The notes under the pieces were generated by a model. The model searched no databases and was not told where the DNA came from. It saw only the letters and a program-made list of their open reading frames with translations. A DNA stretch of 64,000 bases, from assembly GCA_965207225.1 (NCBI GenBank), contig CBDBLV010000001.1:96001-160000 (forward strand). The letters run 5' to 3'. The translations under genes were made by a program, and so were the position numbers. Shown here piece by piece: positions 9,722-23,153 of the stretch. The stretch is from Dehalococcoidia bacterium. Its GTDB lineage: Bacteria; Chloroflexota; Dehalococcoidia; Plut-88900. How positions within the stretch are numbered: position 1 is the stretch's first letter; each line of letters starts with the position of its first letter.

Positions 9722-12025
9722 ATGACCAAGTACCTGGCAAGAATAAGTGCACGCAGACCGTACCTAATCGTAACGCTTTGGCTCATCCTCGCCGTCATTG
9801 GCGGTGGGCTCGCCGACGACGCAGGACTCGGCCTCAACTTCGGCTTCGTAGATCTCCTCAAGCCCGCCACCACCACGGAGCTCACCCTGGGCAGTGGTGC
9901 CGAGTCCTCACGCACAGACAAGTTGCTGGAAGAAGGATTCGGCGACACCAAGCCTATACACGAGATCATCATCGTTCAATCCGACTCCCTCACCGTTGAC
10001 GACCCCCAATTCCGCAACAGGGTTGTCTCCCTCGCCGCCGAATTCGCAGACCTCGGCCCCGAGATCATCGCCTCTCCTCCAGAGCACTACTTCATCCCCG
10101 AGGTTCTTCTCCCCCTCCTATCCCCCGAACAACTTGCCCAGCGCGAGCAGACCGTATCCGCCGACCGGAAGACGGCCATCATGCGCCTCACCATAGCCGG
10201 AGAATTCGACGAGGCCCTGGAAAACGTCGAACCCGTCCTCGAAATCGTCAAGAAGACTAACGATCAGGACGACTTCGACATCTTCATCATCGGTGATGCC
10301 ACCATCTCCCACGAACAGAACGAGATCGCCGAAAACGACCTCCGCCGCGGCGAGCAAGTCGGAATCCCCGTCGCTCTCGTCATACTCATAGTCCTTTTCG
10401 GCACCGTTGTCGCCGCCCTCATGCCTATAGTCCTAGCCCTGGCTTGCATCATCGTTACCCTGGGCATCACCGCCCTCATAGGTCAGGCCCTGGACCTGGT
10501 CTTCTTCATCACCCTGATGATCATCATGATCGGCCTGGCCGTGGGCATCGACTACTCCCTCCTCATCGTCTCCCGATTCAGGGACGAGCTCGACCGCGGC
10601 CTCGATAGGCAGACCGCCATCGAACGCGCCGGCGAGACCGCGGGCCGCACCGTGCTCTTCAGCGGCGTCACCGTAGTCATCGCCCTCTGCGGCATCCTGA
10701 TAGTGCCCTTCGGATTCTTCCAATCCCTGGGTCTCGGGGCCATCTTGGTGGTTCTTGTCGCCATGGCCGGTACCCTCACCCTTCTCCCTGCCAACCTCGC
10801 CATCCACGGTGGCAGGATCGACAGATTTCCCATCCCCTTCTTCGGGAGAAGGAAGGCCAACCCCTCCAAGGTTTCCGGCGATGGCCTTTGGGAGCTCGTG
10901 ACCCGCGCCGTCACCCGGTACCCTGTCATCAGCGTCATCGCCATTGGCGCACCCATGGTCGCCGCCACGGTCTTCTACTTCCAGATAAACACCGGCCTCA
11001 ACGGCGTCGACGCCTTTCCCGAGGGCGCCCAGACCCGGGATGCCTTCTTCGTAATGGAGGAGCACTTCTCCTTCGGCCTCGTCAATCCCACCGACATCGT
11101 CATAGACGGCGACATTGATAGCCCTCAAGTCCAGCAGGCCATCGCAAAACTGCAGGCCTCCCTTGGAGAAAATCCCGCTCTGTCCCTTGACCCCGGCCCC
11201 CTCATCAGCGAGGACCGGGATCTGGCAAGGCTCACGGTCTTCATCAACGGCGAGTCCCGCAGCCAGGATGCAGTGAACGTCATCGAGACCATCCGAAATG
11301 ACTACGCCCCCGACGCCTTTGACGGCGTAAGCGCCGAGGTCTTCGTCGGTGGCATTAGCGCCATCGCCGCTGACGTCTTCTCCATCGTTGACCTGTACAC
11401 GCCCATCGTCTTCGCCTTCGTCCTCGGCTTCAGCTTCCTCGTCCTCATGCTGGTCTTCCGCTCCATAATCATCCCCATCAAGGCCGTGTTCATGAACCTG
11501 CTCTCCGTAGGGACCGCGTACGGTCTCATGGTCCTGGTGTTCCAGAAGGGCGGCGCGGACCTGTTCGGCTTCCAGCACGCCGAGGTCATTGAGATCTGGA
11601 TGCCCCTTTTCCTCTTTTCCATCCTCTTCGGCCTCTCAATGGACTACCACGTCTTCCTTCTCAGCCGCATCCGGGAGCGCTATGACCAGACCGGTGACAA
11701 CGCCGAGGCCGTAGCCTACGGCCTCCGGTCCACCGCCAGCATTATCACCGGCGCCGCTCTCATCATGGTCGCAGTCTTCGGGGCCTTTGCCTCGGGCGAG
11801 AGCACCATCAACCAGCAGATGGGCTTTGGGCTTGCCGTCGCCGTTTTCCTGGACGCTACCCTGGTGCGCTCGATTCTCGTCCCCGCCAGCATGGAGGTCC
11901 TTGGGAGACGCAACTGGTACCTACCGTCCTGGCTCCACTGGCTCCCCGACCTCCGCGTCGAACCCGCAGAGCATGAAGACATTTCCCCTACCAACCCGGA
12001 ACCCGCAGAGGCCCAACCCCGATGA
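9722..12025 (+). CDS. MMPL/RND-family transporter
   Basis: GLAVGIDYSLLIVSRFRDE and FGLSMDYHVFLLSRIRE motifs; two-repeat TM layout. Confidence 0.95.
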   Translation: MTKYLARISARRPYLIVTLWLILAVIGGGLADDAGLGLNFGFVDLLKPATTTELTLGSGAESSRTDKLLEEGFGDTKPIHEIIIVQSDSLTVDDPQFRNRVVSLAAEFADLGPEIIASPPEHYFIPEVLLPLLSPEQLAQREQTVSADRKTAIMRLTIAGEFDEALENVEPVLEIVKKTNDQDDFDIFIIGDATISHEQNEIAENDLRRGEQVGIPVALVILIVLFGTVVAALMPIVLALACIIVTLGITALIGQALDLVFFITLMIIMIGLAVGIDYSLLIVSRFRDELDRGLDRQTAIERAGETAGRTVLFSGVTVVIALCGILIVPFGFFQSLGLGAILVVLVAMAGTLTLLPANLAIHGGRIDRFPIPFFGRRKANPSKVSGDGLWELVTRAVTRYPVISVIAIGAPMVAATVFYFQINTGLNGVDAFPEGAQTRDAFFVMEEHFSFGLVNPTDIVIDGDIDSPQVQQAIAKLQASLGENPALSLDPGPLISEDRDLARLTVFINGESRSQDAVNVIETIRNDYAPDAFDGVSAEVFVGGISAIAADVFSIVDLYTPIVFAFVLGFSFLVLMLVFRSIIIPIKAVFMNLLSVGTAYGLMVLVFQKGGADLFGFQHAEVIEIWMPLFLFSILFGLSMDYHVFLLSRIRERYDQTGDNAEAVAYGLRSTASIITGAALIMVAVFGAFASGESTINQQMGFGLAVAVFLDATLVRSILVPASMEVLGRRNWYLPSWLHWLPDLRVEPAEHEDISPTNPEPAEAQPR

Positions 12026-13194
12026 ACATCCCGACCTGCTACACCGAGGAAGGCGGCTACGCCCAGGCGCGACTCCTGAACCAGGAGATGGCCGACAACT
12101 ACCTGGCTCACACCGTTATCGGAGATCCTCTCGCCGACGCCGCCATTGAACAACTCTCTTCTTATAGCCAGAAGGAAGCTTCCCGCTTCATACGCGCCGG
12201 CATGCGCCAGGACGAAGAGGAATTTACCCAGGCCCCTCCCCTCCTCCGGGAGTTCTTCCACAGCCAGGACACCCCTCCCGACTGGGTCAGGGACGTCGAC
12301 TTCGGCCCCGGAGTCCGCATGTTTCACCGTAACTCTAGGCTTGTCCTGGGCGCCATGGTCGGCGGCACTCTTGTCGAAGGATTCACCACCAACATTGCCA
12401 AATCATTTTTTATAACCGGCCGCCTCCGTGAACAGGGTGTCAGGCGGCTGAAGCAGAACAATCGGCACATGGTCGAAATATTCATGCCCGGCGGCATGGA
12501 TAGAGCAGGCGATGGCTGGAAGTTGTCCGTACGCATCCGGCTGATTCACGCCATGGTCAGGCGACTGCTAAACGCATCCGGAGACTGGGACAGCGCAGCC
12601 TGGGGGGCGCCCATCAGCGCTGCCCACGTGGGATTCGCCATTACCGCCTTTTCTGCAAGACTCCTAGTTCACCTGAAAAGTCTCGGCGCCGAATTCAATG
12701 ACGAAGAACGGGCTAGCTTCATGCAGGTGTGGCGCTATTCAGGCCACCTTATGGGCATACCGGACTCGATCCTCTTTCACACGGAAGAAGATGCCCTGGA
12801 AATGTTCAAGATAGGCGCCATGTGTGAACCTCCTCCCGGGATGGAGTCCATCGTCCTCGCCCACTCCCTGGTCAACTCCGCCCCATTGATCGCGGGAGTC
12901 ACCGAACCGAAAGCCCGTGCAGACCTCGCCGGGTACGTCTTTCGCGTATCCCGCGCGCTCATCGGGCCCAAGACCGCCAAGAGCCTCCGGTACCCTTTCT
13001 TCCCCACCTTCGGGGTCCTCTTCTGGTTCAGGCTTCAGGACCGCTACAACCGTCTCATGGACAGGTTGATCCCCGGCCGACTCCAAAGGAAGAACCCTCT
13101 TCTCACCCTGTTCAATGTGTCTATGTTCGATGAGGAAGGCATAACTTTTCGGCTCCCCGACCACGTTTACGACGAGCGGTCCAGCCGGTGGTAG
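12022..13194 (+). CDS. DUF2236 / MpaB-Lcp-type heme oxygenase family protein
   Basis: GDPLAD, RIRLIHAMVR, WGAPI and WRYSGHLMG motifs; ATGA overlap with MMPL. Confidence 0.85.
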   Translation: MNIPTCYTEEGGYAQARLLNQEMADNYLAHTVIGDPLADAAIEQLSSYSQKEASRFIRAGMRQDEEEFTQAPPLLREFFHSQDTPPDWVRDVDFGPGVRMFHRNSRLVLGAMVGGTLVEGFTTNIAKSFFITGRLREQGVRRLKQNNRHMVEIFMPGGMDRAGDGWKLSVRIRLIHAMVRRLLNASGDWDSAAWGAPISAAHVGFAITAFSARLLVHLKSLGAEFNDEERASFMQVWRYSGHLMGIPDSILFHTEEDALEMFKIGAMCEPPPGMESIVLAHSLVNSAPLIAGVTEPKARADLAGYVFRVSRALIGPKTAKSLRYPFFPTFGVLFWFRLQDRYNRLMDRLIPGRLQRKNPLLTLFNVSMFDEEGITFRLPDHVYDERSSRW

Positions 13195-13242
13195 TTGGCA
13201 TGTTTGCGTCCCGCATTGCGTTATCCCAAGAACGTCCTTAGG

Positions 13243-13251
13243 TGCTATAAT
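13243..13251 (+). promoter_or_regulatory. Extended -10 promoter element upstream of the STAS gene
   Basis: TGCTATAAT, matching TGnTATAAT, about 110 nt before the ATG. Confidence 0.45.
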
Positions 13252-13359
13252 GCCGCCGGAGAATCACGTAGCCTAAACCAATCCCGACCAACCTCTTCGG
13301 CAGGGCGGAGTGCCGGAGAATACATTGCAGGGTGTGGCAAATCCAATTAGGGGGCCCCA

Positions 13360-13758
13360 ATGGTGACGAACGAACAGGAAGGCGGACCGACAACCTGGTC
13401 TGTCGCCGATACCAAAAATCTGACTATAGAGGGTGAACGTAAGTCAGGCACGCTGATAGCCAAAGCCTCGGGCCGCATTGACGGCAGCAACGCCCGGGAA
13501 TTCCAGGATGCCCTGGAGACCTTCCTGGAAGGCGAGGTGTCTTCCTTGGTCTTGGACCTGGAGCATCTTTCCTATATCAGTAGTGCAGGTCTCAGAGTTA
13601 TTCTGCTGGTTTCCAAGAAGTTGCAGCGAAACTCCGCCCAGTTTGGCGTCTGCTCCCTTTCAGTCTCTATCAGTGAAGTCTTTCAGATAAGCGGCTTCGA
13701 CAAGATTATCCGTACTCACTCAACCCAGGCCGATGCCCTCTCCGCTATCAACGCCTAA
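13360..13758 (+). CDS. STAS-domain anti-sigma factor antagonist (RsbV/SpoIIAA-like)
   Basis: GRID, LDLEHLSYISSAGLRV and FQISGF motifs. Confidence 0.92.
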   Translation: MVTNEQEGGPTTWSVADTKNLTIEGERKSGTLIAKASGRIDGSNAREFQDALETFLEGEVSSLVLDLEHLSYISSAGLRVILLVSKKLQRNSAQFGVCSLSVSISEVFQISGFDKIIRTHSTQADALSAINA

Positions 13759-13855
13759 GCCCGGCTTTCGTCCCCGGTCCTACCCTCCTTCCTGGGAAGA
13801 GGCATTTCAATCCCGCAAGTTCCCCGTGACCCGGTACAAAATCGGCTAATTTGAC

Positions 13856-15016
13856 ATGGAACCCCCATACAAAATCCTCGTTGTAGACGACGAACCCGAC
13901 CTCGAACCCCTTATGCTCCAGCGCATGCGCAGGGACATCCGCAAGGGTCAATATGAATTCGTATTCGCCCATGACGGCAATGAGGCCCTCGAACGCCTCG
14001 ATGAGCACAAAGACGTTGATATGATCCTGTCCGATATCAACATGCCCGGTATGGACGGACTCACCCTCCTCGAGCAGATCCCGAAAGTTGACCCCGAGCT
14101 TCGCGCCGTCATGGTCTCAGCCTACGGCGACATGAAGAACATCCGCACCGCCATGAACCGCGGTGCCTTCGACTTCGTCACCAAGCCCATCGACTTCGAA
14201 GACCTCCGCATTACCATCGACCGCACCCTCCGTCACATGGCCGAATGGCGCGAGGCCCTCGCCACGCGCGACAAGCTCGTCGCCATTCAGAACGAGCTTG
14301 GCGTAGCCCAGAAGATCCAGCAGTCCGTCCTCCCTACTGAATTCCCCACTAGCGATGCTTACGAAATCGATGGCCGCATGGAGCCCGCCCGCGAAGTCGG
14401 CGGCGATTTCTATGACGTCCTCCGACTTGAAAACGATAGGATCGGCCTTTCCGTCGCCGATGTCTCCGACAAGGGCGTACCCGCCGCACTCTTTATGATG
14501 TCGACCCTTACCGCCCTTAAAGGCTCGGCCATAGGCCTCGGAGACCCGGGCGCCGTCCTCACCGAGGTTAACACCCTCCTCGAAGAGGAAAACGAGGCCG
14601 CCATGTTCGTCACCCTGTTCTACGCCGTCTTTAACCCCGCCAACGGCCTCTTTACATACGCCAATGGCGGCCACAACCCGCCTGTCATCGTTCACGCCGA
14701 CGGCTCCTCGACTATCCTCCCTGTCACCAACGGCGTTGCCTTGGGCATCGCCCCGGGCTGGGAATACGACGAGGCCGCAGTCACTCTCGCCCCTGGAGAG
14801 ACCATCATCCTCTACACCGACGGCGTAACCGAGGCCATGAACGCCGAGGGCGAAGAGTTCGGCCTCGACCGCCTTTGCCAGATACTTAGCCAGTCTCGAC
14901 CTACGGGTGCAAAACAAGCCAACTCCATAATCTTCGACGCCGTCAGAGATTTTGCCGGCGACACCCCCCAGTCCGACGATATAACCTGCCTCACTTTCCG
15001 GCGGAGCGAGTCCTGA
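13856..15016 (+). CDS. Response regulator receiver + PP2C/SpoIIE phosphatase (RsbU/RsbP-like)
   Basis: Receiver LVVDDE...DINMPGMDG...KP; PP2C VGGDFYD, ADVSDKG, YTDGVTE, DDIT. Confidence 0.93.
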   Translation: MEPPYKILVVDDEPDLEPLMLQRMRRDIRKGQYEFVFAHDGNEALERLDEHKDVDMILSDINMPGMDGLTLLEQIPKVDPELRAVMVSAYGDMKNIRTAMNRGAFDFVTKPIDFEDLRITIDRTLRHMAEWREALATRDKLVAIQNELGVAQKIQQSVLPTEFPTSDAYEIDGRMEPAREVGGDFYDVLRLENDRIGLSVADVSDKGVPAALFMMSTLTALKGSAIGLGDPGAVLTEVNTLLEEENEAAMFVTLFYAVFNPANGLFTYANGGHNPPVIVHADGSSTILPVTNGVALGIAPGWEYDEAAVTLAPGETIILYTDGVTEAMNAEGEEFGLDRLCQILSQSRPTGAKQANSIIFDAVRDFAGDTPQSDDITCLTFRRSES

Positions 15017-15019
15017 ACC

Positions 15020-15439
15020 TTGAGCGCTAACCTCTCCATCAAGGTCAAGTCCGACCGTGAAGAGCTCGACGGCATCACCGCCGCCGTTGAGGCCTTGTCC
15101 GTCGACGAAGCCTGGTCCTCGGACCTCCTCTTCCGCATCAACCTCGTCATTGAAGAGCTCGTCCTCAACATCATGGACTACGGCTACGATGATGACCAGC
15201 ATGAAATCGAGATAAATCTCAAGTCAGACTCGGAGGCCGTCACCATCGACATCCTGGACGAAGGTCGTTCCTTTGACCCCCTCCATGATGCCCCCGTCCC
15301 CGATATCAACGCTCCCTTGGAAGAGCGCTCGGTCGGGGGCTTGGGCATCCACCTGGCCAAGACCATGATGGACGAACTCTCCTACCACAGGGAGGACGCT
15401 CGCAACCATCTCCAGCTGGTCAAGCGCCGCGAGGAATAG
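15020..15439 (+). CDS. Anti-sigma factor / Ser-Thr kinase (RsbW-like HATPase_c_2)
   Basis: EELVLNIMDYG, DEGRSFDP and GGLGIHL motifs. Confidence 0.92.
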   Translation: MSANLSIKVKSDREELDGITAAVEALSVDEAWSSDLLFRINLVIEELVLNIMDYGYDDDQHEIEINLKSDSEAVTIDILDEGRSFDPLHDAPVPDINAPLEERSVGGLGIHLAKTMMDELSYHREDARNHLQLVKRREE

Positions 15440-15466
15440 CCCACGCCTCGTTGACAGATGAAAGCC

Positions 15467-15507
15467 AGGAGGCCCGGCGCTCAGCGCCGGGCCTCTTCTT
15501 TTCTCTT
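15467..15507 (+). terminator. Intrinsic terminator
   Basis: GAGGCCCGGCGC-TCA-GCGCCGGGCCTC followed by TTCTTTTCTCTT. Confidence 0.8.
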
Positions 15508-15533
15508 CAGGCCACAGGTGAAAGTCGAATGTC

Positions 15534-16487
15534 TCACCCGATCTGGTAGTGAAAATACGTCAGGCTCACCAGGTCGTGCAACTCCCGGCAGTGTCTTCCC
15601 GCCCGGCTCAGAAACTCCTGACGGTCGTGCCAGTCGTGCCAGTCGTATTCAACCATCGCCCCGAGCCTTCCCGCAAGCCTCCTCGCTGCAGCCCCGGAAC
15701 CCTCGTCGGGCGCAGGCCCGAATCCCGACAGTTCCTGCCCGATCCTGACCGCCGACCCGATCAGCGAGCTCGGCAGCTGCGGGTCCGTTACCAGCAGGTC
15801 CAGCACCCGGTGCGAGTCTACTTCCAGCCCGTGCCTGTTCGCATACGCCTCGAATGCGTTGTAGACCCTGAGCAGGGTTGACCAGTCGGCATCCGAGTCC
15901 TCCTTCAGAGTTGCCGCTGTCGCCAGCTGCGCTGCCAGCAGCGAAATCAGCAGCTGCGCCCGCTCCATTGCCTGCCCCAGCTGCATGAAGCGCCATCCAT
16001 CGTCCCGGTACATCGTCGTGTCCGCCACGCCCTTGAACCGGTTGATGTCCCCTACCGTCTCCGCGTAGAAGTTCTGGGGAGAGGTCGACCAGATGTCCTG
16101 CATCCCCATTTTCTGGATCCGCAGGTATGACACGTTCAGCGACATCCACATCTCCCCGCTTATCCGGTTTCGCATCTGCCGCGCATTCTCCCGACCCATC
16201 CAGAAGCACTGCCACACCGACCCCGAGTTCGACCTCTCGAACGTCAGGTCATCCGCCAGCGTGAAGGAGTCCGCCAGCAGGAAGTCGTCATCACTGTCGA
16301 CCTCTAGTGCGCCCCCCGGCGGGACCCGACCCAGTGTGGCATAGATCCTTCGCCATCCGAAGTAGATCTCCCCCACTGGTCGGTCCACCAGGGCCTCCGT
16401 CTGCAGCTGCAGCATCCGGCTCAGGTGCCGGGCCCGCTCCAGGTAGCGGCCCATCCAGTACAGGCCCGCAGCGCTACGCGAGAGCAT
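15534..16487 (-). CDS. Alpha-E domain protein (DUF403)
   Basis: MLSR.A..LYWMGRYLERA, RENAR..R..IS.EMW and LGQAMERA motifs. Confidence 0.92.
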   Translation of the reverse strand: MLSRSAAGLYWMGRYLERARHLSRMLQLQTEALVDRPVGEIYFGWRRIYATLGRVPPGGALEVDSDDDFLLADSFTLADDLTFERSNSGSVWQCFWMGRENARQMRNRISGEMWMSLNVSYLRIQKMGMQDIWSTSPQNFYAETVGDINRFKGVADTTMYRDDGWRFMQLGQAMERAQLLISLLAAQLATAATLKEDSDADWSTLLRVYNAFEAYANRHGLEVDSHRVLDLLVTDPQLPSSLIGSAVRIGQELSGFGPAPDEGSGAAARRLAGRLGAMVEYDWHDWHDRQEFLSRAGRHCRELHDLVSLTYFHYQIG

Positions 16488-17886
16488 CTGCTTTCTTCGG
16501 CTCCGTCTCCTCGTCGAACTCTTCCGGCATCAGCACGAACTCGGGGTATGACTCCATGCCCAGCTCCCCGACGTCCTGGCCCAGCTCTTCTACCTGCCGC
16601 GATATCCGCACTCCGAGCACCCTGTCCAGCACATACCACACCGTGAATGCGCTGCCAAACACGAAGCCGCCAATCGCAGCTATGCCCATCAGCTGGACGT
16701 GGAACTGCGCCTCGCCGGGAGCGGTGAAACTCACGGCAATGGTGCCCCAGACACCCGCGATCAGGTGTGCCGGGATCGCCCCTACCACGTCATCCAGCTT
16801 CAAACGTTCCAGCAGCTTCAGACCGGCCGTGCAAACCAGGCCGCCTATGGCCCCAACCACTATTGCCCAGAAATGGTCGGGATTCGCAGGCCACGCCGTC
16901 ACCGCAACAAGTCCCGCTATAGCTCCGTTCAGACCCGCAAACAGGTCTATCCGACCCAGGATCGGCCTCGAAACCGCCAGCGCCGTGACCACCCCTGCCG
17001 CTGCGCCCAGGTTGGTGTTCACTAGGACAACGCTCATTGCTACCGCGTCGAGCGCGCTCCCGAGCGCCAGCTGGGACCCGCCGTTGAACCCGAACCAGCC
17101 CAACCACAGGATGAACACGCCCAGCGTCACCAGCAATACGTTGGAGGGCGGCGTCGCCTTGACGCTCCCGTCCCTGCGGTACTTGCCCAGCCTTGGCCCC
17201 ACCAGCATGATCCCCGCCAGCGCCGCCCAGCCTCCCGTGCTGTGCACTATCGTCGAGCCCGCAAAGTCGGAGAATCCCGCCTGTGCCAGCCATCCCCCTC
17301 CCCACGTCCAGGACCCCACTATCGGGTAGATGAACCCCGTCAGCGCCAGCGTAAACAGGAAGAACGGGAGCAGCTTTATCCGCTCCGCTATCGCACCCGA
17401 TACCACAGACGCCGCAGTCGCCACGAACACCATCTGGAAGAACCAGTCCGACATCACCGAGTAGCCGTTCCCGACCACCTCACCCACCGCACCCTCATCC
17501 TCACCAATTAACGCAATCTCGGCTTCCGACGGTCCGTACAGGAATTCGAACCGCCCCCACAACCCGACATCCCCCACGTCCGTGTACATCAGGTTGTATC
17601 CGATGAAGAAGAACGCCAGCCCCGCTATCGAATAGATGCCGATGTTCTTCAGGCAGATGGTCGATGCGTTCTTTGTCCGCACCGACCCCGACTCCAGCAT
17701 CGTGAAACCGGCGCACATCCACATCACCAGTGCTCCCCAGATCAGGAACGCAAAGGTGTTCAGGATGAACTGCGACTCTTCGTCCACCCCCGCTGCATGG
17801 GCGATGGCCGGCCTGGCCAGAAAGGCCCCCATTGTCACAAGTCCGACCAATGCGATTAAGATTGCGGGTCTGCGAATCACAAGCAT
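16474..17886 (-). CDS. amt: Ammonium transporter
   Basis: FFQMVF, SGAIAER, DFAGSTIVH, WFGFNGGS and DDVVGAIPAH; both pore histidines present. Confidence 0.96.
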   Translation of the reverse strand: MLVIRRPAILIALVGLVTMGAFLARPAIAHAAGVDEESQFILNTFAFLIWGALVMWMCAGFTMLESGSVRTKNASTICLKNIGIYSIAGLAFFFIGYNLMYTDVGDVGLWGRFEFLYGPSEAEIALIGEDEGAVGEVVGNGYSVMSDWFFQMVFVATAASVVSGAIAERIKLLPFFLFTLALTGFIYPIVGSWTWGGGWLAQAGFSDFAGSTIVHSTGGWAALAGIMLVGPRLGKYRRDGSVKATPPSNVLLVTLGVFILWLGWFGFNGGSQLALGSALDAVAMSVVLVNTNLGAAAGVVTALAVSRPILGRIDLFAGLNGAIAGLVAVTAWPANPDHFWAIVVGAIGGLVCTAGLKLLERLKLDDVVGAIPAHLIAGVWGTIAVSFTAPGEAQFHVQLMGIAAIGGFVFGSAFTVWYVLDRVLGVRISRQVEELGQDVGELGMESYPEFVLMPEEFDEETEPKKADALA

Positions 17887-17939
17887 GTTACAGGCCTCCT
17901 GGCTCTTTGTGTTTTAAGGGACCCTCATCTATCCGATAC

Positions 17940-19373
17940 TCAGTCTTCCAATACCCAGAAGTCTTTCCCTCCGCCCCCCTGGCTCGAGTTTACCACCAGG
18001 CTCCCCCGGCGCAGCGCCACCCGGCAGAATGCCCCCGGCACCAGCCGCGTGTTCTGCCCGTGTAATACGAATGGCCGAAGGTCCACGTGCCGGGGCTCGA
18101 ATTTCCCATCTATCAGGCAAGGCGACCTCGAAAGCGCGAGCACCGGTTGCGATATATAGTTCGCTGGGTCTGCTCGCAGCTCCTCTGCATACGCCTCTCG
18201 TTCCTCCGCCGTCGAATGTGGGCCTATCAGCATCCCGTATCCCCCGGAACCCCCCACCTGCTTGACTACCAAGTCTTCAAGGTTGTCCAGCGTGTACTCC
18301 AGGTCCTCCGGGCGCCGGCATAGCCGTGTATCGACGTTTTGGAGGATCGCTTCTTCGCCCAGGTAGAACCTTATCATGTCCGGCACATAGGCGTATACGC
18401 TCTTGTCGTCCGCCACCCCTGTCCCGGGAGCGTTCACCAGTCCTACGTTGCCCAGCTTGTAGGCATGCACCAGCCCCGGCACCCCCAGCAGCGAATCAGG
18501 CCTGAATGTCAGCGGGTCCAGGAAATCGTCATCCACCCGGCGGTATACCACGTCCACCCTCTTCAGCCCCCCGGTCGTCCGCATGTATACCATGCCCTCT
18601 TTCACAAGCAGGTCCTGGCCCTCCACCAACTCCGCCCCTATCTCCTGGGCCAGGAAGATGTGCTCGTAGAACGCAGAGTTGTACACTCCGGGCGTCAAAA
18701 GGACGATGGTCGGGTCCGTCCGACCGCTCGGGGCCATCTCCAGCAGCGTCTCTCTCAACGCCCGACCGTAGTGCTCCACCTCCCTGACCCTGGAAGTCCT
18801 GTACAGACGCCTCAAACTGGCCTTCGCCGCCTTACGGTTCGCCAGCATGTACGACACCCCGGACGGCACCCGCAGGTTGTCCTCCAGCACCCGCCACCCG
18901 TCATTCGTCCTCACTAGGTCCGTGCCGCAAATGCCTACCCATGTCCCGTACGGCGCTGAAAAGCCTCGCATCTCCGTTCGATACTGGGGACATCCCATCA
19001 CCACGTCGGCGGGTATCACCCCGTCCCGTATGATTCGTGCCTCGCCGTACACATCCTCCAGGAACGCGTTAAGCCCCTTCAGCCTCTGCGTAAGCCCGCG
19101 CTCCAGGAGGCCCCACTCCTCGCTGGACATGGCCCGGGGCAGGCAGTCTATGGGGATAATCCGCTCGTCCGCCTCTTCGTCCCCATACACGATGAAAGTT
19201 ATCCCTTCCGTCGAAAAAGAGCGCATGACGCGCTCCTGGATGCTGTGCAGCTCCTCGGCGGAAAGTCGGGTCAGCGTCTCTACAATCTGCCGACAGTGCT
19301 CCCGCGGAGCACCGTCCGGCAGGAACATTTCGTCATATATCGCAGGATCGAGATCGTAGGTATCAAAATCCAC
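17940..19373 (-). CDS. Circularly permuted type 2 ATP-grasp protein (DUF404/DUF407)
   Basis: VLEDNLRVPSGVSY, YRRVDDDFLDP, GVADDK, HVDLRPF and VNSSQGGGGKD motifs. Confidence 0.95.
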   Translation of the reverse strand: MDFDTYDLDPAIYDEMFLPDGAPREHCRQIVETLTRLSAEELHSIQERVMRSFSTEGITFIVYGDEEADERIIPIDCLPRAMSSEEWGLLERGLTQRLKGLNAFLEDVYGEARIIRDGVIPADVVMGCPQYRTEMRGFSAPYGTWVGICGTDLVRTNDGWRVLEDNLRVPSGVSYMLANRKAAKASLRRLYRTSRVREVEHYGRALRETLLEMAPSGRTDPTIVLLTPGVYNSAFYEHIFLAQEIGAELVEGQDLLVKEGMVYMRTTGGLKRVDVVYRRVDDDFLDPLTFRPDSLLGVPGLVHAYKLGNVGLVNAPGTGVADDKSVYAYVPDMIRFYLGEEAILQNVDTRLCRRPEDLEYTLDNLEDLVVKQVGGSGGYGMLIGPHSTAEEREAYAEELRADPANYISQPVLALSRSPCLIDGKFEPRHVDLRPFVLHGQNTRLVPGAFCRVALRRGSLVVNSSQGGGGKDFWVLED

Positions 19374-19498
19374 GGCGCCAACCTAACTGAGAAAGTGCGA
19401 TTATACCAGAGCAGCTATACGGTATCGGTTTGGGCCCGCCCAACTCCTAAGCGTCACAGCCAAGCCCCGACTCCCTTTTCATCTATAATTTCTACAGC

Positions 19499-20005
19499 AT
19501 GAACGCCGGAATCACCGCAGGGGCCATCGCCGCCATAATCGCCGTCCTCGTCTCCATCCCCCTCAAGTCACCCGACGACGCCCTCCTAAACTCCGCTACC
19601 GTCGGAATCGCATCCCTTCTCGTTGGCCTCCTCTCGGCCCTCATGTGGCGAATGCTCATCAACACCGAGAAACACGTCAAGAATTACCTCATCCTTTGGG
19701 CAGTCTCCTCCGTGACCGTCGGCTCCATGCTCATCTCCGCCTTCGCCGTCCAGCTCGACAACCTCGTCCCCTTCGCCCTTCCCTTGACCATCATCGTCTG
19801 CGTCATCACTGGCGTGCTCACCCCCGTATGTGGCCGGGACCCTTCCCCCCTGAAGTGGTGGGCTGCCCCCGCCGCCGTAGCCCTTGCCCTTGCCCTCGCC
19901 ATTCCCCTCGCCGAGGTCGGAGACCAGGAGTCCGGCCGCCTCGAGCTCCCCCCGAAGACCCGACTTGTGCAGCCCGCCCCCGACCTGTACCTTGAGGCCA
20001 CGTAA
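19499..20005 (+). CDS. Hypothetical membrane protein
   Basis: 168-aa ORF with about five hydrophobic segments and host-like codon usage. Confidence 0.7.
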   Translation: MNAGITAGAIAAIIAVLVSIPLKSPDDALLNSATVGIASLLVGLLSALMWRMLINTEKHVKNYLILWAVSSVTVGSMLISAFAVQLDNLVPFALPLTIIVCVITGVLTPVCGRDPSPLKWWAAPAAVALALALAIPLAEVGDQESGRLELPPKTRLVQPAPDLYLEAT

Positions 20006-20024
20006 ACCCAACCGGAGGTTCCTG

Positions 20025-20795
20025 ATGCCCAGACCCGTCCCCCGACTCACGGGCCTGTCTCTTATTCCCGCCTTGGTTTTCCTCCTGTTCTTCCTTGCAG
20101 CCTGCGGGTCCGTGTCAATAGAATTCGAGACCACAACCTCTACCCCTGCCCCCGACCCCACCCCCACGCCTGCCCCGGCTCCCACAGCTACAGTTGCACC
20201 TGTTGACACCCCCACCCCTTCCCCTCCCCCCGCCGACGATCCTCCGGGCCTCGGAAACTACGAAGGGTTCACCTACCACGTCGGCGTCGGTTCCGAGGCC
20301 ACCTTCACCGTCGAGGAAAAGCTTGCCAGCCTCCCCCTCCCAAACGACGCCGTAGTCCGCACCACCGCACTCTCCGGGGAGGTTCATTTCGACGGTCGGG
20401 CCTCCGTCATCGAAATTGACCTCCACAAGATGGAGAGCGACCAGCCCCGACGTGACCGCTATATCCGCGAGCGCATGTTCCCCAACGACCCCGTCGCCAT
20501 CTTTAGCCTCCCCACCACCCTCCCCCTCCCCGACGGCTTCTCTGACGGCGAGGAAATCACCACGGAGATTACCGGCCAGTTGGAGATTCGGGGCGTGAAG
20601 GCTCCCGTCACCTTCCAGATCGAGGCCCGGGACGATGGCGATGTAGTCCACATCCTTGGCCGCACCTCCTTCGTCTGGTCCGACTTCGATATCCCCGTCC
20701 CCAACGTCGGTACATTCGTCCGCGTTACCGACGAAGTATCCGTCGAGATTCTCCTCGCCGCCCGCCCCGCCGACCTCTGGGAGGACCACTCGTGA
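20025..20795 (+). CDS. YceI-family lipoprotein (copy 1)
   Basis: GGAGG RBS before ATG 20025; lipobox LAAC; SDQPRRDRYI and GQLEIRGV motifs. Confidence 0.85.
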   Translation: MPRPVPRLTGLSLIPALVFLLFFLAACGSVSIEFETTTSTPAPDPTPTPAPAPTATVAPVDTPTPSPPPADDPPGLGNYEGFTYHVGVGSEATFTVEEKLASLPLPNDAVVRTTALSGEVHFDGRASVIEIDLHKMESDQPRRDRYIRERMFPNDPVAIFSLPTTLPLPDGFSDGEEITTEITGQLEIRGVKAPVTFQIEARDDGDVVHILGRTSFVWSDFDIPVPNVGTFVRVTDEVSVEILLAARPADLWEDHS

Positions 20796-20850
20796 AATTC
20801 GGCCTCTTCATAAACGCTCACCACCCGCCCGGCGAGTCCGTCTCCCTCCC
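20792..20850 (+). pseudogene. Relic 5' end of the LLM gene left by tandem duplication
   Basis: Encodes VKFGLFINAHHPPGESVSL, versus MKFGLFINAQHPPGESVAL at 21672. Confidence 0.75.
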
Positions 20851-20919
20851 AGGTCGGGTCTTGTACAACCCGAGTCCTCCCTGTACCTTGACTACATACA
20901 ACGTGAAAGGAGGTCACTG

Positions 20920-21657
20920 ATGCCGAGATTCGCCCCGCGGCTCGCGGGCTCTTCCCTGGTCCCGGCTGTCATCCTCCTCCTGCTCTTTGCCGCCTGTGGC
21001 TCGGTCGAAATAGACATTGAACGCACCACATCCACCCCCGGACCTGACCCCACTCCTACCTCGGCTCCCGCACCGGCCAAAACTCCCGCTGCAAGCACAG
21101 AGCGGGATGACTCCCAGGCGCCTACCCGAGGCTCCTATAAGGGCCTCACGTACGTCGTGGGCGAAGGCTCGAAGGCCACTTTCACCGTGGAAGAAAAGCT
21201 TGCCAGCTTGCCCCTGCCCAACGATGCAGTGGTACACACTACCGCTCTCTCGGGGGACGTCAACCTCGACGGCCGACGCTCCCTTATCAAGATTGACCTT
21301 CACAAGCTGGAAAGTGACCAGTCCCGCCGGGACCGCTACATACGCGAAAGGATGTTCCCCAACGACCCCATAGCCGTCTTCACCCTGCCAACTTCCCTAC
21401 CCCTCCCCAAGGGCTTCGCAGAGGGCGAGGAAGTCACCACAGAAATTACCGGAGAGCTCGAAATTAAGGGCGTAACTGCTCCCGTCACCTTCCAGATCGA
21501 GGCACGGGATGACGGCGACGTGATCTACATCATTGGGCGGACCTCTTTCGTTTGGGAGGATTTCGGGATGACCGCGCCCCGGGTGGACAGCTTCGTTCAG
21601 GTTACCGACGAGGTCACCGTTGAAATACTGATCGCGGCCAGGCCTTACTGGGGTTGA
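20920..21657 (+). CDS. YceI-family lipoprotein (copy 2)
   Basis: AAGGAGG RBS before ATG 20920; highly similar to copy 1 (ATFTVEEKLASLPLPNDAVV identical). Confidence 0.85.
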   Translation: MPRFAPRLAGSSLVPAVILLLLFAACGSVEIDIERTTSTPGPDPTPTSAPAPAKTPAASTERDDSQAPTRGSYKGLTYVVGEGSKATFTVEEKLASLPLPNDAVVHTTALSGDVNLDGRRSLIKIDLHKLESDQSRRDRYIRERMFPNDPIAVFTLPTSLPLPKGFAEGEEVTTEITGELEIKGVTAPVTFQIEARDDGDVIYIIGRTSFVWEDFGMTAPRVDSFVQVTDEVTVEILIAARPYWG

Positions 21658-21671
21658 AGAAAGGACCGGGA

Positions 21672-22676
21672 ATGAAATTCGGCCTCTTCATCAACGCCCA
21701 GCACCCTCCCGGTGAGTCCGTTGCCCTCCGCCTCGCCGACGCCGTGGACCAGGTCCGCCTCGCCCGTGACGTCGGCTTCGATATGATCTGTGCCGGACAG
21801 CACTACCTCTCTCACCCCTACCAGATGAGCGCCATCATCCCCCTCCTCGCCCGCCTCACGGCGGAGGCCGAAGGCATGGAGATTGCGCCTACCGTCCTCC
21901 TCCTCCCCCTCCTCAACCCAGTGGACATCGCCGAAACCTCCGCCACCCTCGACGCCATGTCCGGTGGCCGCTTCATTCTCGGTGTGGGCATCGGCTACCG
22001 GGACGAGGAATACACCGCCTTCGGTGTCAAACGCTCAGAGCGCATCGGACGCCTCAACGAAGCCCTCGAAATCATCCGTCTCCTCTGGACTCAGGATGAA
22101 GTCGAATACCAAGGCAAGTATTACCAGGTCCCGAGAGTGAAGGTCGCCACCCATCCTGTGCAGAAGCCCCACCCTCCCATCTGGGTCGCCGCCAACGGGC
22201 CTCCGGCCATCGCCCGAGCCGCCCGCTGGGGCTATCCCTGGGTCATAAACCCCCACGCCACCATCGGCATGATCAAGGACCAGCTCGACTACTACCGACA
22301 AGTTGCTGCAGAAGCCGGCCAACGAGTCCCGGAAAGAATGCCCATGATGCGGGAGCTATACGTCGCCCCCGACTCCGCTGCCGCCTACTCCGAAAGCCGT
22401 CCCTACTTGGAAAGCAAGTACGCTGCCTACGCCTCCTGGGGCCAGGACAAGGCCCTCCCCGAAGGCGAGTCCTTTTCCGTTCCCTTCGACGAGCTCGCCC
22501 GGGACCGCTTCCTCATCGGCAACCCCGAGGAAGTGGTCAACGAAATCTGCCGCTACCGCGACGAACTCGGCGTCAACCACCTCAACTTCCGTCTCCAGTG
22601 GCCCGGCACACCCCACGCCAACGCCATGCGCCAACTGGAGCTGCTGGGCAAAGAAGTACTGCCCCATTTCCGCTAG
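21672..22676 (+). CDS. LLM-class flavin-dependent oxidoreductase
   Basis: MKFGLF, GQHY, LDAMSGGRFILGVGIGYR.EE and PVQKPHPPIW motifs. Confidence 0.92.
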   Translation: MKFGLFINAQHPPGESVALRLADAVDQVRLARDVGFDMICAGQHYLSHPYQMSAIIPLLARLTAEAEGMEIAPTVLLLPLLNPVDIAETSATLDAMSGGRFILGVGIGYRDEEYTAFGVKRSERIGRLNEALEIIRLLWTQDEVEYQGKYYQVPRVKVATHPVQKPHPPIWVAANGPPAIARAARWGYPWVINPHATIGMIKDQLDYYRQVAAEAGQRVPERMPMMRELYVAPDSAAAYSESRPYLESKYAAYASWGQDKALPEGESFSVPFDELARDRFLIGNPEEVVNEICRYRDELGVNHLNFRLQWPGTPHANAMRQLELLGKEVLPHFR

Positions 22677-22694
22677 TCTTCAAGGAGGACTCAA

Positions 22695-23153
22695 ATGGCC
22701 CTGGCCAACAAGATAAACCCATTCCTCTGGTTAGATGGAAGGGCCAAAGAAGCAGCCAACTTTTACGTCTCCATCTTCAAAGATGCGAATATCCTTAACG
22801 TCTCCCAGCTAGAGGCAGGCCCCGCCGAAGGAAACCATTTCGTTGAATTCGAACTGGAGGGACTCAAGTTTGCCGCTGTCGATGCCCTGCCCGCATTCGA
22901 CTTCACCCCCGCCATCTCCTTCGTGGTCTCTTGCGACACCCAGGAAGAGATCGACCATTTCTGGGAGTCGCTTTCCGAGGGAGGCGAGAAGGAACAATGC
23001 GGCTGGCTGAAGGACAAGTTCGGCATCTCCTGGCAGATAGTTCCTTCCCTCATGCCCAAACTCATGGCAAAGGCCCAGAAGGAAGTGATCGAAGTCCTCC
23101 TCCCGATGAAGAAAATCGAAATAGCCAAGCTACGTGAAGCCGCAGGGTTGTAG
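22695..23153 (+). CDS. VOC family protein (PhnB/3-dmu-9_3-mt-like)
   Basis: INPFLW, FTPAISF and QCGWLKDKFGISWQI motifs. Confidence 0.9.
   Translation: MALANKINPFLWLDGRAKEAANFYVSIFKDANILNVSQLEAGPAEGNHFVEFELEGLKFAAVDALPAFDFTPAISFVVSCDTQEEIDHFWESLSEGGEKEQCGWLKDKFGISWQIVPSLMPKLMAKAQKEVIEVLLPMKKIEIAKLREAAGL

Follow-up and report, generated by a model that had tools for sequence, protein, structure and literature searches.

In the genome of a Dehalococcoidia bacterium (Chloroflexota; 4.03 Mb in five contigs, 92.3% complete, 8.3% contamination), a 64,000-nucleotide stretch (C1:96001-160000, hereafter the window) carries the gene for an ammonium transporter, amt, between the gene for a circularly permuted ATP-grasp (CP-ATP-grasp) amidoligase and that for an Alpha-E protein. 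Gene calls and spacers were read from the window sequence, and families were assigned by Pfam profile search of its open reading frames (ORFs). All three ORFs are on the minus strand. The CP-ATP-grasp gene (17940-19373; PF14403, E 1.5e-155; PF04174, E 3.8e-141) begins with GTG and encodes 477 residues. After a 53-nucleotide (nt) spacer with an AGGAGG box comes amt (16474-17886; PF00909, E 2e-94), whose product, a marine-subtype transporter of 470 residues, begins like a signal peptide and has a C-terminal tail of VLMP plus acidic residues. The Alpha-E gene (15534-16487; PF04168, E 1.1e-65, full profile; 317 residues) is the last; it begins at 16487, while the amt ORF including its stop codon ends at 16474, an overlap of 14 nt. 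These coordinates and the three Pfam identities agree with the gene order and overlap described in a first-pass annotation of the same DNA, and a Pfam scan of the neighbours bore out its statement that no glnK, transglutaminase or Anbu (proteasome-like) gene is adjacent. The three genes likely form one operon, as their packing suggests co-transcription.

The divergent intergenic region 5' of the ATP-grasp gene is 125 nt long. Within it, an extended -10-like box, TGgTATAAT, can be read on the minus strand 26 nt upstream of the ATP-grasp start (19400-19408). The same box is found in the closest relative, L003, and by eye, -10-like boxes are similarly placed at L030, L031, L036 and L047. A sigma-70 consensus scan of the locus found no full -35/-10 promoter. 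The sole strong hairpin of the operon lies 3' of Alpha-E (15464-15497), is rich in G+C and is flanked by T-runs on both strands (14-pair stem, 15467-15497 on the plus strand and 15478-15464 on the minus strand), as for a terminator that acts in both directions, on Alpha-E and on the gene converging with it.

The linkage was surveyed in two ways: at the 80 top-ranking loci that encode relatives of the window Amt, and in 301 evenly sampled Chloroflexota genomes, for which the coordinates of Alpha-E and Amt matches were compared. In the first survey, ATP-grasp and Alpha-E genes lay beside amt at 12 of the 80 loci, in three gene orders. The nested order, ATP-grasp-amt-Alpha-E, was found at five loci (L003, L030, L031 and L047 in Chloroflexota, L036 in Acidobacteriota), amt-ATP-grasp-Alpha-E at another five, all in Gemmatimonadota, and ATP-grasp-Alpha-E-amt at two, both in Vicinamibacterales. 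The closest public relative, L003, is the chromosome of a Dehalococcoidia metagenome-assembled genome, and its three proteins are 93-96% identical to those of the window. In the second survey, 78 of the 301 genomes had Alpha-E, the present genome counted. In 13 of the other 77, amt was directly upstream of Alpha-E (all nine genomes of genus g79 and all four of g54), and in five further genomes, of genus g71, it was within 6 kb. Of the 77 other genomes with Alpha-E, 18 thus have an Amt no more than 6 kb away from it, well above the approximately 0.6 expected from random placement, although the 18 belong to three genera only. None of the 13 nested loci duplicated an earlier one, the highest nucleotide identity being 87%. 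Altogether, 31 genomes from three phyla show some linkage of Amt, ATP-grasp and Alpha-E, in one of three orders, and 19 of them, the window counted, have the nested order. A synteny survey had been named beforehand as a test of the arrangement, which proved not to be unique to this genome. In a tree of 39 ATP-grasp sequences, the three gene orders fell in separate clusters interleaved with unlinked triads, and the Gemmatimonadota group was set off by well-supported branches. It appears that at least two rearrangements or juxtapositions have kept amt beside the ligase genes, which argues for selection on the linkage.

Relatives of the locus revealed a larger gene set. At all 13 nested Chloroflexota regions, the genes for ATP-grasp, Amt, Alpha-E and a transglutaminase-like protein follow one another on one strand. 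Upstream of them are a periplasmic binding protein (Peripla_BP_6) and a HAMP histidine kinase (12 of 13), an RsbW-like kinase (11 of 13) and a response regulator fused to a PP2C phosphatase (RR-PP2C; 10 of 13), and the genes that are missing coincide with region or contig ends. In the Acidobacteriota locus L036, the string runs STAS, RsbW, binding protein, kinase, ATP-grasp, amt, Alpha-E and transglutaminase, with 57-78% identity. Among the 12 linked loci of the Amt survey, a transglutaminase-like gene follows Alpha-E at seven and an RsbW-like homologue lies beside the Amt/ligase genes at seven; the RR-PP2C gene also recurs beside the cassette. A STAS gene directly follows amt at L010, L016, L017, L025 and L027, and lies beside amt at 6 of the 68 unlinked loci. 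Most relatives thus have the full cassette of RR-PP2C, RsbW-like kinase, binding protein, histidine kinase, ATP-grasp, Amt, Alpha-E and transglutaminase, and the window holds a trimmed, rearranged and dispersed copy of this horizontally mobile cassette, which passes between phyla as a unit. The junction of amt and Alpha-E shows gaps of 7 to 85 nt in the relatives, so the overlap seen in the window is not conserved.

Other genes accompany the cassette in particular lineages. At the Gemmatimonadota loci L011, L012, L019, L040 and L043 (approximately 10.6-11.5 kb), the transglutaminase gene is followed by one for a putative outer-membrane porin of the TorF/Gcw_chp type, so that a possible outer-membrane channel shares a string with the Amt. 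At the Vicinamibacterales loci L048 and L062 (7205-7927), a gene of the LOG/'possible lysine decarboxylase' family comes directly after amt, and beyond it a STAS/RsbW pair, present in duplicate, together with a HAMP-PP2C protein on the opposite strand.

In the window itself, three plus-strand genes converge on the operon. They encode a STAS anti-sigma-factor antagonist (13360-13758; PF01740, E 7.5e-20; TIGR00377), an RR-PP2C phosphatase of the SpoIIE type (13856-15016; PF00072 and PF07228) and an RsbW-like anti-sigma-type kinase (HATPase_c_2; 15020-15439; PF13581, E 1.3e-23), which together (13360-15439) make up a partner-switching module. No sigma-factor gene was present in the scanned neighbourhood of the module, whose target was not searched for. 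On the other side, divergent from the operon (19499-22676), are genes for a 168-residue membrane protein that matches no family, for two YceI-like proteins and for a luciferase-like monooxygenase; the same YceI-like, luciferase-like and 168-residue membrane protein genes are found in L003. Over the whole window (1-64000), the GC skew is about -0.2 from approximately 2 kb to approximately 38 kb and near zero after that, and the G+C content climbs from approximately 0.60 to 0.66-0.68 past 48 kb. These shifts may mark a switch in strand bias or a region of different origin, in an assembly rated 8.3% contaminated.

No part of the cassette is lost from the genome, but further parts are dispersed in it. 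Its sole Bact_transglu_N/Transglut_core gene is on another contig than the operon (C4:639292-640200), preceded by three luciferase-like genes. The transglutaminase gene, which the first-pass annotation had noted as not adjacent, is thus present elsewhere in the genome, and in most relatives it is found directly 3' of Alpha-E. At C5:1859241-1863850, on the minus strand, a second RR-PP2C phosphatase gene (product 65% identical to that of the window) comes first, then genes for a Peripla_BP_6 binding protein and a HAMP histidine kinase. This set is the sensor half of the cassette, here separated from the Amt/ligase genes. General Pfam scans found no Anbu-like gene among the neighbours of the operon or at the 12 related linked loci; no search of the whole genome with a model of the proteasome family was made. 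The ATP-grasp, Alpha-E and Amt genes are each present in single copy. A type I glutamine synthetase (GS) was found, and therefore ordinary ammonium assimilation exists; there is also a second GS-like gene, on C5 (756001-770000; L101), where it is accompanied by GATase, GXGXG, Glu_synthase, sarcosine-oxidase-alpha/GCV_T-type and creatinase/prolidase-like peptidase genes. The string resembles a methylamine pathway of the N-methylglutamate type, in which case methylammonium uptake may be a further task of the single Amt.

To describe the transporter, we compared it with profiles, solved structures and its own relatives. The window Amt scored 517.1 bits against TIGR03644 ('marine subtype'; cut-off 514), and its PF00909 match covers profile positions 3-399 of 399. 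Its residues were mapped by printed alignment to those of Sd-Amt1, with the residue numbering of PMC11152129. Trp195 and Ser271 of the vestibule, Phe154 and Phe267 of the Phe gate and the twin His215 and His374 correspond to Trp-139, Ser-225, Phe-98, Phe-221, His-169 and His-323 of Sd-Amt1, and all six are invariant in 81 aligned sequences. The pore residues are thus intact, and the protein is predicted to be a working, PII-independent transporter of ammonium and probably of methylammonium.

A quick tree of the 81 Amt sequences separated a clade of 35 alphaproteobacterial rows from a second clade of 46 rows (clade 2). The branches of clade 2 are short, its members come from at least eight phyla, and several of its records are named as sponge-associated candidate taxa. 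The two clades differ in their genomic partners and in their C-termini. In the alphaproteobacterial clade, glnK lies directly upstream of amt at 22 of 35 loci, and the tail reads YPEF-GxGSQRx; in clade 2, glnK is beside none of the 46 genes, and all 46 proteins end in YPEF-V(L/V)MP and an acidic run (C-terminal 12-25 residues; 16474-16540 in the window). This VLMP-plus-acidic tail is a candidate regulatory or partner-binding element. The acidic tail to which the first-pass annotation had drawn attention is thus present, but it is not special to ligase-linked copies, since it marks the whole glnK-less clade.

The ATP-grasp protein's best match in the Protein Data Bank (PDB) is 3n6x, a 'putative glutathionylspermidine synthase' (E 2.3e-165). 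In Alpha-E, the N-terminal MLSRSA..YW..RY.ER is kept in 27 relatives, so the start appears to have been called correctly, and the conserved motifs are intact. Its structure model is all-helical, with two bundles (pLDDT 91.3). No sequence relative of Alpha-E was found in the PDB, where Foldseek gave a best E of 0.33, and in the wide search of VIA-align the best Z was 10.3, to designed bundles and to helical subunits of membrane proteins, a value too low to be meaningful for helical proteins. A complex prediction for Amt and Alpha-E scored 0.00 against a mark of 0.32 from alignments of 35 and 28 rows, and it was used for neither side of the argument. Among genomes with a clade-2 Amt, the triads of ATP-grasp, Alpha-E and transglutaminase are of two subtypes (L102-L110, L127 and L128 versus L111-L126 and L131). 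In subtype one, ATP-grasp is approximately 50% and Alpha-E approximately 25-28% identical to the window proteins, and in subtype two, the sole one seen linked to amt, the values are approximately 63-94% and 40-60%. At L122:403-2337 (minus strand), the Alpha-E frame stays open for 645 residues into a transglutaminase-like region and may represent an Alpha-E/transglutaminase fusion.

Published work connects the ligase genes with nitrogen. ATP-grasp/Alpha-E/transglutaminase genes are induced under nitrogen limitation in P. putida, as cited in PMC5666114 and PMC6376114, and compared with ammonium, nitrate raised PP_2685 by 4.4 log2 and PP_2688 by 4.0 log2 (PMC8050072, Table 2). In Burkholderia cenocepacia, I35_5080-5083 were listed among the strongest NtrC/sigma-54-dependent genes (PMC5491218), and DUF403/404/407 and Bact_transglu_N were described as co-varying with urea genes in marine metagenomes (PMC3597751). 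On the biochemical side, the Yersinia ATP-grasp protein hydrolyses ATP and the activity of Anbu was undetectable (PMC6376114). Structure papers of 2017 described the role of the gene set as unconfirmed, and our literature searches found no later functional assignment. The searches also found no account of amt beside ATP-grasp/Alpha-E genes, though earlier gene-neighbourhood work may mention it. The recurrence of the synteny fits the published induction (PMC8050072, PMC5491218).

We consider it on balance probable that the locus is a nitrogen-limitation module, in which a PII-independent Amt and an ATP-dependent amide-bond system are joined by shared regulation and physiological role. The Amt would take up or recapture ammonium when nitrogen is scarce, and the ATP-grasp/Alpha-E pair, with the unlinked transglutaminase-like enzyme, would carry out ATP-dependent amide-bond chemistry in the same response. 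By analogy with the Pseudomonas and Burkholderia homologues, the window genes would be induced under nitrogen limitation. The shared regulation would probably pass through the neighbouring partner-switch cascade, which in full cassettes begins with the periplasmic binding protein and histidine kinase.

Several observations weigh against this interpretation. The ligase genes are unlinked to 33 of the 46 clade-2 Amts, so the linkage is not obligatory and each part works without the others beside it. Linked genomes also group by phylogeny, coming from three genera of Chloroflexota, one clade of Gemmatimonadota and two Vicinamibacterales, and therefore the independent linkage events are few; all linked Amts fall in one 30-row subclade of the quick tree, which is compatible with a single origin. 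Upstream regions compared by eye had -10-like boxes alone, with no common regulator motif or recognisable regulator site, and Rfam matched nothing over 12000-23000 at E up to 1, neither a glutamine riboswitch nor another known nitrogen-responsive RNA element. Finally, the tight nesting and the start/stop overlap exceed the needs of co-regulation and would also fit a direct physical or metabolic link. On the other hand, Alpha-E is encoded elsewhere in 29 of the 33 genomes with an unlinked clade-2 Amt, mostly in ATP-grasp-Alpha-E-transglutaminase triads, and this pattern suits a shared regulation and role better than an obligatory complex. Three of those unlinked triads are again beside STAS/PP2C genes.

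A more ambitious version, in which Amt, ATP-grasp/Alpha-E (with or without transglutaminase) and the sensor/partner-switch genes constitute a transferable PII-independent machine whose amidoligase acts on nitrogen brought in by Amt or on Amt itself, appears possible but doubtful. The first of these two actions can be considered separately: ATP-grasp with Alpha-E might ligate Amt-delivered ammonia or methylamine to an activated carboxylate, a form of capture or storage resembling that by GS or gamma-glutamylmethylamide synthetase. The placement of amt between the ligase genes, overlapping the start of Alpha-E, and the retention of the nested order in 19 genomes would suit such coupling, as would the formation of amides through acyl-phosphates by ATP-grasp enzymes (PMC6376114), the annotation of the nearest solved ATP-grasp relative as glutathionylspermidine-synthase-like, that is, as an amine-to-carboxylate ligase, and the methylamine-type gene cluster on C5. 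However, a type I GS and a second GS-like gene are already present. Furthermore, the place of amt varies: it may precede the ligase genes, lie among them, follow them or be distant from them in the genome, so it has no fixed pairing with either protein. Most bacterial triads have no amt alongside, as in 59 of the 77 Alpha-E-bearing Chloroflexota genomes. We therefore regard direct coupling as unlikely.

We also consider it unlikely that the Amt is mainly an ammonium receptor or transceptor that signals to the STAS/RsbW/PP2C proteins and the histidine kinase, which would in turn control the ligase genes. This possibility arises from the closest solved relatives of the window Amt, which are the sensor Amts Sd-Amt1 (8qj3/8qpf; PMC11152129; E 5.5e-71) and Ks-Amt5 (6eu6; PMC5764959; E 1.3e-56), far ahead of AmtB (approximately 1e-24). 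In Sd-Amt1 numbering, Glu-29, Asn-45, Ser-107, a Ser at Thr-104 (part of the N1 site) and the exit-narrowing Asn-269 are kept, and the signalling genes beside amt at 7 of the 12 linked loci, together with STAS at 6 of the 68 unlinked ones, point in the same direction. In contrast, the N1/N2 signature described for ammonium receptors (AmR), QX6EX15NX2D[F/T]X54-60TX2[S/T] (PMC11152129), is incomplete in the window protein, which has C58, E65, N81, I84, Y85, S160 and S163 and a longer spacer; Gln-22 is replaced by Cys and the N2 ligand Asp-48 by Ile. There is also no fused transducer domain, PF00909 being the sole match and the protein ending approximately 20 residues past YPEF, although unfused members of Amt cluster 2 exist, and that cluster includes proven transporters (PMC11152129). 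The AmR residues were rejected as a mark of sensor identity, since the same residues are present in all 81 aligned sequences, including the 22 glnK-linked Amts. Moreover, a real role in uptake is favoured by the window Amt being the only one in its genome, as is also the case in 7 of 9 g79 genomes.

Adjacency without function, in which a mobile amt inserted into the operon or next to it and then spread with it vertically and by horizontal transfer, would agree with the mixture of at least eight phyla on short branches in the Amt clade, which indicates frequent transfer, and with the transposase fragments near L031, L047 and L062 and the clustering of linked genomes by lineage. It is nevertheless very improbable, because the three gene orders occur in separate ATP-grasp lineages, two families of Chloroflexota and a genome of Acidobacteriota have all retained the nested order, and the published control of the ligase genes by nitrogen limitation gives an independent functional reason for the linkage (PMC8050072, PMC5491218).

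The absence of PII, and the idea that the ligase system replaces PII control of Amt, have to be read against the distribution of PII in general. No PII gene (PF00543) was matched in the present genome (92.3% complete) or found in that of L003 (G001). At a threshold for canonical PII of E up to 1e-18, the protein was present in 74 of the 301 sampled Chloroflexota genomes, two of them unpublished, and absent from 227. Of the genomes belonging to the three Amt-linked Chloroflexota genera, 19 were in the sample (the 18 linked ones and G197, with Amt and Alpha-E on different contigs). These gave weak PII-like matches only (36-43 bits, in eight genomes), and canonical PII was found in none of the 19 versus 28 of 58 unlinked Alpha-E-bearing genomes (Fisher p 5e-5, a comparison that rests on three genera). 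Among the 12 other linked genomes, six had PII above the cut-off, and 7 of 12 PII loci fetched from linked genomes carry another Amt, 28-43% identical to that of the window. The absence of PII was rejected as a sign of replacement, being non-specific given the background of 227/301. A takeover of the GlnK role by ATP-grasp/Alpha-E, which would bind or modify Amt, for example at its acidic tail, to gate uptake, is very improbable: the lack of PII here and in the 93-96% identical relative, the absence of glnK beside clade-2 Amts, the 0/19 count and the translational overlap are all consistent with it, but PII is missing from the phylum as a norm and kept in half of the 12 other linked genomes, the acidic tail is common to all clade-2 Amts, and the overlap is not conserved. 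The replacement of PII by the ligase, as suggested in the first-pass annotation, is thus a weak proposal, and the STAS/RsbW/PP2C module next door would be the more natural regulator of the Amt and ligase genes.

The nitrogen-limitation module that we favour bears on a widespread gene set, found in 78 of 301 Chloroflexota genomes as judged by Alpha-E and with homologues in Pseudomonas, Yersinia and Burkholderia according to the papers cited above, for which induction under nitrogen limitation has so far been the only functional hint. The conserved linkage of the ligase genes to amt and to a ligand-sensing phospho-relay, in three orders across phyla, is genomic evidence of an independent kind for a role in nitrogen metabolism. 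It ties the set to nitrogen supply and not to a given product. It also marks out a multi-phylum clade of Amt proteins that is glnK-less and has a conserved VLMP-plus-acidic tail.

Among known systems, the nearest is the Anbu operon, composed of CP-ATP-grasp, Alpha-E, transglutaminase-like and Anbu genes (PMC5666114, PMC6376114). The window locus has the same core families (PF14403 and PF04168), its relatives have the transglutaminase-like gene directly after Alpha-E, and the published link of that operon to nitrogen limitation suits an amt partner. Unlike the Anbu operon, however, the locus has amt between the core genes, its transglutaminase gene on another contig and no adjacent Anbu-like gene, and a partner-switch module is attached instead. 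The glnK-amtB pair, whose PII protein gates the ammonium channel, is similar in that an Amt gene shares an operon with non-transport partners tied to nitrogen status. It differs in that clade-2 Amts have no glnK beside them and the present genome has no PII, while the sister clade that is linked to glnK has a non-acidic tail.

The sensor Amts Sd-Amt1 and Ks-Amt5 (PMC11152129, PMC5764959) are the nearest solved sequences and share with the window Amt part of the N1 site, the exit-narrowing Asn and a genomic tie to signalling proteins. In contrast to them, the window Amt has no fused HAMP/GGDEF or kinase domain, has Ile in place of Asp-48 and is the sole Amt of its genome, and its signature residues are the same as those of glnK-linked relatives. 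Finally, the neighbouring module resembles the RsbV/RsbW/RsbU-type modules with RR-PP2C, in which STAS, a HATPase_c_2 kinase and an RR-SpoIIE phosphatase are encoded side by side. It differs from these in having no adjacent sigma-factor gene, and in relatives of the window locus it is co-oriented with the binding-protein/histidine-kinase pair and with the Amt and ligase genes.

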